A stretch of DNA of 64,000 bases, from positions 42,283 to 106,282 of the forward strand of contig CAYTYP010000003.1 of assembly GCA_964441405.1 (NCBI GenBank), in the 5' to 3' direction. The position numbers and the translations under genes were made by a program. Within the stretch, counting starts at the first letter, position 1; each line of letters opens with the position of its first letter. Below the pieces are notes generated by a model. The model was not told the origin of the DNA and did not search any database. It saw only the letters and a list, made by a program, of their open reading frames with translations. Positions 11,210 through 12,814 of this stretch are shown here, in pieces. The DNA comes from an uncultured Acidobacteriota bacterium (lineage in GTDB: Bacteria > Acidobacteriota > UBA6911).

Positions 11210-12814
11210 TTATCTCCATTCATCCACAGAGATGCTGGCAAGGTGCTTCAGATCTCCGGCTTGGAACAGAGCTTCAACTCCTCCTCCCGTCACCACAATC
11301 GAGATATCTTTGGGGCTGGCGAATTGAGGCGTCTTGGCATTCTTCTGGAGCCACTCGCTTAATTTTTCTTTCGTGTCGTAGCCTTGTTCTTTGAGAACTT
11401 TGGCCGTCAGCGGGTCGCAAATGACCAGGGCTCCGGCTCCGGTAAAGGTTTCCAAAACAAGTCCGATCTGGCGATCGAACATCAGCTTTGCCGCCGAACC
11501 TCCGTTCTTTGCGCCGGGATGGACATGAACGCCCAGTCCGGTGAATAGGCTAATGATGCTTTCCCCTTTCTTAAAGCCGCGCTGCAAGCTAAAGGGCTGC
11601 CAAGGGCTGTTTGCTTCATTTTCAGCAATTACGATGTTGTTATAGTTGAGGCTGTTGCCGAGAGATCCGTTGTAAGTTTCTCCCGTGATCCCTGCATTCC
11701 CTAGATTCTTTGAGAGCAGCGTCCACGCCCTGCCGATGGCGGCATTTGCCTGGCTAAAAGGTCCCAGTGCGCCTGTTTCGAAATTCATTCCGATTTCTTC
11801 CCGAACCGGTCCGTTGATCACGACAGCTCGAGCGGGAGAATCGGAGGAATTATAAAGGGACGGAATTCCTGAAGCCGCCAGAGCCAGGATTACAGGAAAA
11901 TATTCCGGTTTCGCGCCGGCCATCACGGCATTTACCGCGACTTTTTCCACGGTAAATTCCCAAGGTCCGAAATCGCCGCCGGCCATTTTGCCTACAACTT
12001 CATCCGGACGACGGCTGGTGCCTTTCAGCATATCGCTGACCTTCTGTTCTGTCGGCAGAGTGACGGGAAGGTAATCCGTCCATCCATTAGCCATGAAAAG
12101 ACGTTGCAAAACATCGGCAGTTTGAGGCCCGATCAATTTAGCGCCTGTTTTGACTTCCAGGAATCCGGTCTTTTTATCCTCTTCCGTCAGAGGCTTTGTC
12201 AGACCATTGACTATTTCCTGGATTACGGGCGCTCCCGTTTCCGGATTATTGCCTTCGATTTGAGCTTTATGTTGCGCGGGGGTTTTGCCGCTGACCGGAT
12301 GGGTTACGAAAACCAGGCGTGCATTAGGCATTCCTTTTTTTCGAGCCATGTTTTTGGCGACTTGCACGAAGCGATGGGTGGTAATTCCCACCGATGGTTT
12401 TCCCAACTTTTCAAGAGAAACGCAATTGCCGGCGACCGCCGGCGCACAGCTGTTTCAATGACCGACAGCCATGACGACAGCGTCGCCTTTTTCTTTTATC
12501 TCCGTCCATAGCTGAGCGTCTTCCTGGTCGTAAGAACCCGCCTTTTCCCTGAATACGAGTTTCGTCTTGGGCATGTTTTTAGAAAACCAGTCCATGGTAA
12601 CTCGCAGGAGGCTGGCGCCTCCCTCGTATTGGACATCGACAAAATAAACCGTCTTGCCGTCGAGCGTGTCGAGCCTCGGCGCCATGGGGATCAACGGAAT
12701 TGGCGGCGGCGTTCCTCGAGGATTTAAAACCGAGATTTTGGCCTCTTGTGCATACGGAGAAGCGGCCGAAATCATCCCTATTGCGATTAGCAGAAACACA
12801 TTTCTTATTCTCAT
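11210..12814 (-). CDS. Candidate secreted selenoprotein (UxxC motif); in-frame fusion of ORFs 12455..12814 and 11210..12406 through a UGA at 12455..12457
   Basis: Both ORFs are in the same frame (12814-12406=408). The only intervening stop is TGA in the context AVGH-U-NSCAPAVAGNC. The 16 intervening codons are all sense. The N-terminal part has a signal peptide. A hairpin GCCGGC-GGUC-GCCGGC starts 11 nt 3' of the UGA. Alternative reading: two separate genes, the downstream one starting at TTG with a weak RBS. Confidence 0.45.

Follow-up and report, generated by a model that had tools for sequence, protein, structure and literature searches.

A probable bacterial SECIS hairpin with a GGUC loop downstream of an in-frame UGA codon in a UGSC-family selenoprotein gene of an uncultured Acidobacteriota bacterium

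In a stretch of 64,000 nucleotides (nt) from an uncultured Acidobacteriota bacterium (contig CAYTYP010000003.1 of assembly GCA_964441405.1, positions 42,283 to 106,282; called the window in the following), we analysed a predicted selenoprotein gene on the minus strand in which an in-frame UGA codon is followed by a short hairpin. We conclude that this hairpin is very probably a genuine bacterial selenocysteine insertion sequence (SECIS) of a gene of the UGSC selenoprotein family, and that it belongs to the type represented by fdhF with its GGUC loop. Judging from the comparison of homologous genes, the stem pairs and the loop sequence are under purifying selection at synonymous sites in the homologues that carry TGA for selenocysteine (Sec) at this position, and not in those that carry TGC for cysteine (Cys).

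Throughout the analysis, nucleotides were numbered with the U of the UGA as nt 1. On the minus strand, the UGA (12457..12455) is followed by the 11-nt spacer AACAGCUGUGC (12454..12444) and then by GCCGGC (12443..12438), GGUC (12437..12434) and a second GCCGGC (12433..12428), exactly as a preliminary description of this DNA had read it. Six G-C pairs join nt 15-20 to nt 25-30 and enclose a loop of four nucleotides, GGUC, at nt 21-24. Folding of the region from nt -3 to +63 yielded a minimum free energy (MFE) of -21.6 kcal/mol and a structure containing this 6-bp stem and its 4-nt loop on top of an interrupted lower stem (GAAAC/GUUUC, GC/GC and UG/AU), which takes in the G and A of the UGA itself. 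The same structure was obtained from a 45-nt fold as from this 66-nt fold, with an MFE frequency of 0.67 and a z-score of -2.42, and the stem-loop alone reached -11.7 kcal/mol, or -13.2 kcal/mol with 2-nt flanks. The check by folding that had been proposed in the preliminary description thus came out in favour of the hairpin, which is present in the MFE folds of the downstream sequence. No run of U residues is found downstream of the stem, and Rfam contained no matching family at gathering thresholds over the whole window, nor at E values up to 10 around the site. The coordinates of the hairpin, the gene and its neighbours are given in Table 1.

Table 1. Positions of the predicted selenoprotein gene, its RNA element and adjacent genes in the window (aa, amino acids).
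Feature	Positions	Strand	Basis or remark
Predicted selenoprotein gene, 534 codons plus stop	11210..12814	-	Translation, Pfam and NCBIfam scans, homologues, AlphaFold model
UGA, predicted Sec codon	12455..12457	-	In-frame, codon 120, U-N-S-C (UxxC) motif
Predicted upper SECIS stem-loop, nt 15-30	12428..12443	-	Sequence, MFE folds, synonymous constraint, covarying pairs
Predicted full 40-nt stem-loop, nt 2-41	12417..12456	-	MFE structures of the downstream sequence (45 and 66 nt)
UGSC domain, aa 29-186	12257..12730	-	Crosses the UGA; predicted flavodoxin/CheY-like alpha/beta fold
C-terminal region, aa 187-534	11213..12256	-	Conserved; no family assignment
Homocysteine S-methyltransferase family gene	12862..13806	-	Pfam PF02574
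MetH-activation-domain-like gene	13770..14492	-	Pfam PF02965
Divergent EF-G-like GTPase gene	14690..16780	+	

The peptide around the UGA reads ...VVMAVGH-U-NSC-APAVAGNC.... The Pfam profile PF24696 (UGSC) matches residues 29-186 with an E value of 6.4e-28 and 98.5 bits against a cut-off of 25, and the match crosses the UGA. The NCBIfam model NF041046, named 'UGSC family (seleno)protein', scored 80.2 bits and thereby stayed under its equivalog cut-off of 125 bits, because this model describes the short stand-alone form. A protein search recovered more than 6000 relatives, of which those of about 580 aa span the whole query and show a Cys (within GHCSxC) aligned to the UGA. Other relatives of about 400-445 aa begin just past the aligned position, as is typical of gene calls cut at a TGA; the existing gene calls for the window likewise divide the gene at this point into products of 119 aa and 393 aa. 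Counted over distinct homologous motif sites, TGA is present at 134 of 145 and TGC at the remaining 11. A global reassignment of UGA, as in genetic codes 4 or 25, was ruled out because TGA serves as the ordinary stop of 7 of the 30 Pfam-supported genes of the window, and none of the other window genes contains a plausible in-frame TGA. Proteins with a UGSC domain have been published as a family of selenoproteins whose motif is UxxC (PMC2398784). On this comparative evidence, the UGA, which had already been put forward as a candidate Sec codon, appears to be a genuine Sec-type codon at a Cys-equivalent position inside the domain.

The homologous loci used for comparison were taken from contigs of one genome per species and from metagenome contigs, together with two look-ups for Cys forms, and 80 of more than 580 matching candidates were kept in each of the two scans. 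They originate from metagenome-assembled genomes (MAGs) labelled Acidobacteriota, Thermodesulfobacteriota/Deltaproteobacteria, Chloroflexota, Verrucomicrobiia, Gammaproteobacteria and others, and their motifs contain S-T, S-S, G-G or N-T where that of the window contains N-S. The Cys sample comprises 11 forms in total. We sorted the Sec forms by the peptide following Sec into group A (n = 50, from several phyla and including the window), which has the peptide P-[AS]-V-[AV] and usually the hairpin CCGGC-GGUC-G[CU]CGG, and group B (n = 78), which has the peptide P-A-T-V-[GS]-H and the fold CAG.GACC[GUN]GGUC.CUG at nt 17-35. Tandem paralogues, two or three of them inside about 7 kb and all with a TGA and a hairpin of their own, occur in many Acidobacteriota loci (L006, L008-L013, L015-L017, L019, L021, L043, L083, L084 and L164), and in both L049 and L164 a TGA copy stands beside a TGC copy. 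The closest full-length Cys-form relative (P0002 from JGI sample 3300075153, 66% identity) adjoins a second UGSC paralogue, and a 148-aa gene with the third winged-helix domain of SelB (PF09107) lies about 2.3 kb away on the same contig.

In group A, the mean pairwise synonymous-codon difference was 0.13 in codons 4-9 (nt 13-30) and 0.55 outside of them. This trough matches the hairpin and includes the synonymous loop positions G21 and C24 besides the stem. The codons found at the site were GCG at codon 4 (92% at the site vs. 40% gene-wide in the same genes), CCG at codon 5 (92% vs. 49%), GCG at codon 6 (93% vs. 40%), GTC at codon 7 (96% vs. 40%), GCC at codon 8 (100% vs. 41%) and GGC at codon 9 (88% vs. 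50%). The flanking codons vary about as they do gene-wide, with CAC and CAT in 25 and 20 cases for His-10 and four different codons for Thr-13.

Only two pairs of the stem, 15-30 and 18-27, join one wobble position to another. In the alignment of group A, 43 sequences have G-C and 4 have A-U at pair 18-27, with none unpaired, and pair 15-30 is G-C in 22, A-U in 2 and C-G in 2 sequences. The remaining 21 sequences are unpaired at 15-30 in this register; they mostly have Ala or Val at codon 9 and a shifted register with a predicted bulged C17. The observed pairing percentage and covariation score were reached by none of 500 shuffles. Hairpins with a GU-containing loop are also present at the same place despite other amino acids, as in the peptides PGVTR, PGVAR, VAAVVG and PGAVRL. 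The structure is thus kept in related genomes with synonymous constraint and compensatory changes, in line with the conservation among relatives that the preliminary description had named as a check. This applies to the upper hairpin: RNAalifold retained the four upper pairs only, and we rejected the lower stem as a conserved element, since the lower pairings of the relatives differ and RNAalifold dropped them. The lower stem is therefore shown in Table 1 as predicted, and as a part of the element it is weakly supported.

The hairpin of group B has a 3-nt loop at nt 25-27 and an energy of about -7 kcal/mol (an example site is L014:3288-3350, one of the group B loci within L006-L164). Around it, the synonymous difference was 0.013 vs. 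0.43, the exception being the third position of the Val codon in the loop, and some of the codons run counter to the usage in the same genes, with CCA for Pro in 97% vs. 6% and GGT for Gly in 100% vs. 10%. Of the 134 Sec sites, only 26 passed a strict SECIS filter demanding a contiguous stem, since the stems of many relatives are interrupted by bulges or 1x1 internal loops; this filter was replaced by one parsing the MFE structure, which at -7.5 kcal/mol passed 2 of the 78 group B members. Because the group B design, at about -7 kcal/mol, falls below the search threshold, standard SECIS searches would miss this group. It is a possibility that the family holds two mutually exclusive SECIS designs. 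Group B also showed constraints that are unexplained by the stem: the His codon before the UGA (codon -1) is CAT in 77 of 77 cases (32% gene-wide), the Ser codon after it (codon +1) is AGC in 95% (38% gene-wide), and the Ile codon at +12 is ATA in 88% (4% gene-wide). These could represent an effect of the UGA context or extra pairing.

Sec and Cys forms differed at the synonymous positions of both hairpins. Among the Sec forms of group A, 48 of 50 use GTC for Val, compared with none of 4 Cys forms (Fisher p = 5e-5), and 47 of 50 have the loop GGUC, which is absent from all 4 matching Cys forms. For group B, the Pro codon CCA was found in 76 of 78 Sec forms and 0 of 7 Cys forms (Fisher p = 7e-9), and the Gly codon GGT in 64 of 64 and 0 of 4, respectively (Fisher p = 1e-6). 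Conservation of this kind shows selection on the RNA but does not name the binding partner, and group B, with its different, weaker hairpin, shows that there is room for more than one design in the family. We therefore weighed a selected structure that would aid recoding of the UGA without SelB, by pausing the ribosome or by blocking release factor 2 (RF2), or would serve the stability of the mRNA. We consider this very unlikely: the loop sequence is conserved besides the pairing, GGUC is also the loop of fdhF, in which SelB contacts G23 and U24 (PMC8659212), and the distance between UGA and hairpin is that of the fdhF element. Moreover, the constraint vanishes where the UGA becomes UGC, which is expected of a Sec-specific signal and not of a general stability element.

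Several observations weigh against a SECIS function of the hairpin, and some of them would suit a by-product of the GC-rich, partly self-complementary codons for Cys-Ala-Pro-Ala-Val-Ala-Gly that arose with no selection on the RNA. The first and second codon positions of Pro-Ala-x-Ala-Gly dictate four of the six stem pairs, and among 3000 synonymous recodings with the codon usage of the gene itself, 11.7% kept the 6-bp stem and 23.6% passed the bacterial SECIS filter (0.8% kept the stem together with the GGUC loop). In a comparison of nt 10-42 with 300 synonymous recodings of each sequence, the Sec forms had raw MFE values no better than their recodings (median p = 0.43), and they did not fold with lower energies than the Cys forms either (Mann-Whitney p = 0.09). 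The Cys form L054 contains a 6-bp stem, and 2 of the 11 Cys forms passed the permissive SECIS filter. The statistics of the single sequence are weak as well, with a z-score of -1.37 for the 66-nt fold and 19 of 200 shuffles folding equally well; seen from this sequence alone, the hairpin is only weakly more than chance. Raw folding energy was dropped as a discriminator for lack of signal and replaced by structure-specific and synonymous-site tests, and thermodynamic stability is not the evidence for a function of the hairpin. The filter is passed by about 3.5% of the other in-frame positions in these genes and by 24% of the recodings of this site; it is a permissive model, and a fit to it is therefore necessary but not sufficient.

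Further points on this side concern the comparative data, the folding context and the host. The A-U pairs at 18-27 perhaps represent one or two evolutionary events only, and the p-values of the shuffles and Fisher tests overstate independence because the sequences are phylogenetically related. The window hairpin is a perfect all-GC helix without the bulged U17 of the fdhF element. In a 201-nt fold including upstream coding sequence (12340-12540, minus strand; ensemble frequency of the MFE structure 0.004), spacer and 5' arm are instead engaged with GGCGACGCUGUCGUCAUGGCUGUC in the coding sequence upstream of the UGA, and the UGA lies in the resulting loop. The alternative structure could form on untranslated mRNA; a ribosome on the UGA would have unwound the upstream partner. 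Finally, no gene for tRNA-Sec (selC) and no selA, selB or selD is present within the 64-kb window; by analogy with Sec decoding in E. coli and Moorella, we infer that selA, selB, selC and selD would be found elsewhere in the genome and that the host is Sec-competent.

The synonymous sites speak strongly against a mere by-product of the coding sequence. They are fourfold less variable over nt 13-30 than in the flanks of the same sequences, the codons are fixed to 88-100% against 40-50% gene-wide, and GGUC is attained via synonymous loop positions in nearly all Sec forms and in none of the matching Cys forms. In addition, the pairs between two wobble positions covary, and hairpins remain despite amino acid changes. 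We regard the by-product explanation as even less likely than a selected structure working without SelB. The least likely explanation is a true stop at the TGA in a pseudogene or split gene, yielding the 119-aa product and a 398-aa product (from a TTG start at 12406) with a hairpin that is irrelevant or resembles a pause site or terminator. The division made by gene callers and the absence of Sec machinery from the window would suit it, but the Pfam domain continues across the TGA, the TGA is kept over several phyla and aligned to Cys in intact homologues, which is incompatible with repeated pseudogenisation, in-frame residues between the TGA and the proposed restart are conserved, and the stem has no U run after it.

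In bacterial Sec decoding, SelB with guanosine triphosphate (GTP) and Sec-tRNA(Sec) binds the G and U of the SECIS loop and delivers Sec at the UGA of a paused ribosome, competing with RF2. Liu et al. 1998 and Fourmy et al. 2002 are reportedly SECIS and SelB sources for this mechanism, and Yoshizawa et al. 2005 is said to give the structure of Moorella SelB with RNA. Applied to the SECIS reading of the window hairpin, a ribosome positioned on the UGA (12457..12455) would leave the mRNA from about nt +15 outside, where it would fold into the 6-bp GC stem with its GGUC loop, and the 11-nt spacer would put the hairpin just outside the mRNA channel. SelB carrying Sec-tRNA(Sec) and GTP would bind the exposed G and U of the loop through its C-terminal winged-helix domains and, competing with RF2, bring the Sec-tRNA to the A site. 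Codon 120 would then be read as selenocysteine and 414 further codons would be translated. In the product, a flavodoxin-like domain would present the redox motif U-x-x-C at the N-terminal end of one of its helices. By analogy with the E. coli and Moorella systems, we infer that SelB would bind this loop and that Sec would actually be inserted at the UGA.

An AlphaFold model of the protein based on 47 homologues reached a predicted local distance difference test (pLDDT) value of 86.6 and a predicted template modelling (pTM) score of 0.81. It places Sec120 between a strand (residues 112-118) and a helix (residues 123-136), which is where redox motifs of the UxxC/CxxC kind are usually found. For the C-terminal approximately 350 residues, there was no Pfam match at E = 0.1, no sequence relative in the PDB and no convincing fold match. 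This region contains many invariant residues, including Gly, Pro and Asn, and the motifs AVNAVMAGA and NGPxR. The N-terminus (12730-12814, minus strand) resembles a signal peptide, MRIRNVFLLIAIGMISAASPYAQ, and many homologues (e.g., P0004, P0024, P0073 and P0100) start with a twin-arginine-like RRxLLS leader (RRKLLS or RRTLLS). From these leader sequences, the selenoprotein may be exported, perhaps into the periplasm.

The gene order around the selenoprotein gene (window positions 10574-16780) is shared with the three closest orthologous loci (L003-L005), which come from Acidobacteriota MAGs. It consists of the genes for the EF-G-like protein, the MetH-activation-domain-like protein, the homocysteine S-methyltransferase, the UGSC fusion protein, a CBM9 protein and a GGDEF-EAL response regulator. 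Given this conserved order, the selenoprotein may be functionally connected with methyl transfer. The idea that the protein is a new kind of selenoenzyme, consisting of an exported flavodoxin-like UxxC domain and the region of about 350 aa, with a redox function tied to methyl transfer involving a sulfur or selenium compound, goes further and is rather doubtful.

Three other loci of the window showed unusual features. A catalase gene extends over two frames (46403-48555, plus strand), with an open reading frame at 46403..46984 corresponding to positions 1-99 of the Pfam Catalase profile and an overlapping one at 46876..48555 corresponding to positions 102-381. The split points to a frameshift near 46.88-46.98 kb, caused by a sequencing or assembly error or representing a pseudogene. 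The gene at 989-2368 (plus strand) codes for a URO-D-family protein with an N-terminal extension of about 250 aa without a family match, and that at 17343-19415 (plus strand) for a 690-aa protein in which multihaem cytochrome c domains are fused to a membrane domain of the cytochrome b561 type.

With the UGA read as a Sec codon, the annotation is corrected to a single predicted selenoprotein of 534 residues with Sec120, instead of products of 119 aa and 393 aa. The gene also offers a clean comparative case in which a sharp trough of synonymous variation coincides with a coding-region RNA hairpin and vanishes in Cys-encoding relatives. The GGUC tetraloop that is recognised by SelB of E. coli is conserved in Acidobacteriota, Thermodesulfobacteriota, Chloroflexota and one gammaproteobacterial MAG, and the UGSC fusion proteins represent an abundant family in soil bacteria. 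What is known of Sec decoding is left unchanged by these results; the predicted SECIS is conventional and the selenoprotein family was already known.

The consensus model of bacterial SECIS elements (bSECISearch; Zhang and Gladyshev), as summarised in a review (PMC13188914), allows 3-9 nt for the loop and 4-16 bp for the upper stem. The loop lies 16-37 nt away from the UGA and has a G at one of its first two nucleotides, mostly as G[G/U], and the energy is -7.5 kcal/mol or lower. The window element agrees with the model in every respect, having a 4-nt loop that starts with GG, a stem of 6 bp, a spacing of 17 nt and an energy of -11.7 kcal/mol. It is located in coding sequence directly after an in-frame UGA aligned to Cys, and its structure is conserved in Sec orthologues and relaxed in the 11 Cys forms. 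The preliminary description had judged position and composition to fit a bacterial SECIS, and both hold, including the start at nt 15 and the GGUC loop of fdhF.

The minimal element of E. coli fdhF is a 17-nt stem-loop at nt 15-31, located 11 nt from the UGA and containing the bulged U17, and G23 and U24 of its loop are the determinants for SelB (PMC8659212). We checked the fdhF sequence, which is present in 5419 of 5426 E. coli genomes, and its folding resulted in a GGUC tetraloop at nt 22-25 on a stem-loop of about 40 nt starting at the UGA, with a shuffle z-score of -1.56. A validated SECIS is therefore no more exceptional in thermodynamic terms than the window hairpin. Both elements start at nt 15 and have six upper pairs, a GGUC tetraloop and a predicted stem-loop of about 40 nt reaching back to the UGA. 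The stem in the window had previously been described as shorter than that of fdhF, which proved incorrect: both upper stems consist of six pairs, and fdhF only adds the bulged U. Because this bulge is missing from the window stem, its GU is found at nt 22-23 instead of nt 23-24. The loop is closed by a C-G pair in the window and by an A-U pair in fdhF, and the sequences of the lower stems differ. The two genes also belong to hosts of different phyla and code for unrelated proteins, and the function of the window element is predicted from its sequence.

The window protein shares with the UGSC family the domain itself, the position of Sec as the first residue of UxxC and the preponderance of Sec over Cys forms, which amounts to 134 to 11 here and to 255 to 21 in the Global Ocean Sampling (GOS) data, where a fusion of UGSC to an unknown domain had already been noted (PMC2398784). 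The fused homologues are named 'UGSC family (seleno)protein' by NCBI. The window protein differs from the family in its motif, U-N-S-C instead of U-G-S-C, and in its C-terminal region of about 350 aa without family or fold assignment. The UGSC domain is predicted to be flavodoxin-like by the model presented here, whereas a thioredoxin-like fold had been guessed in 2008.

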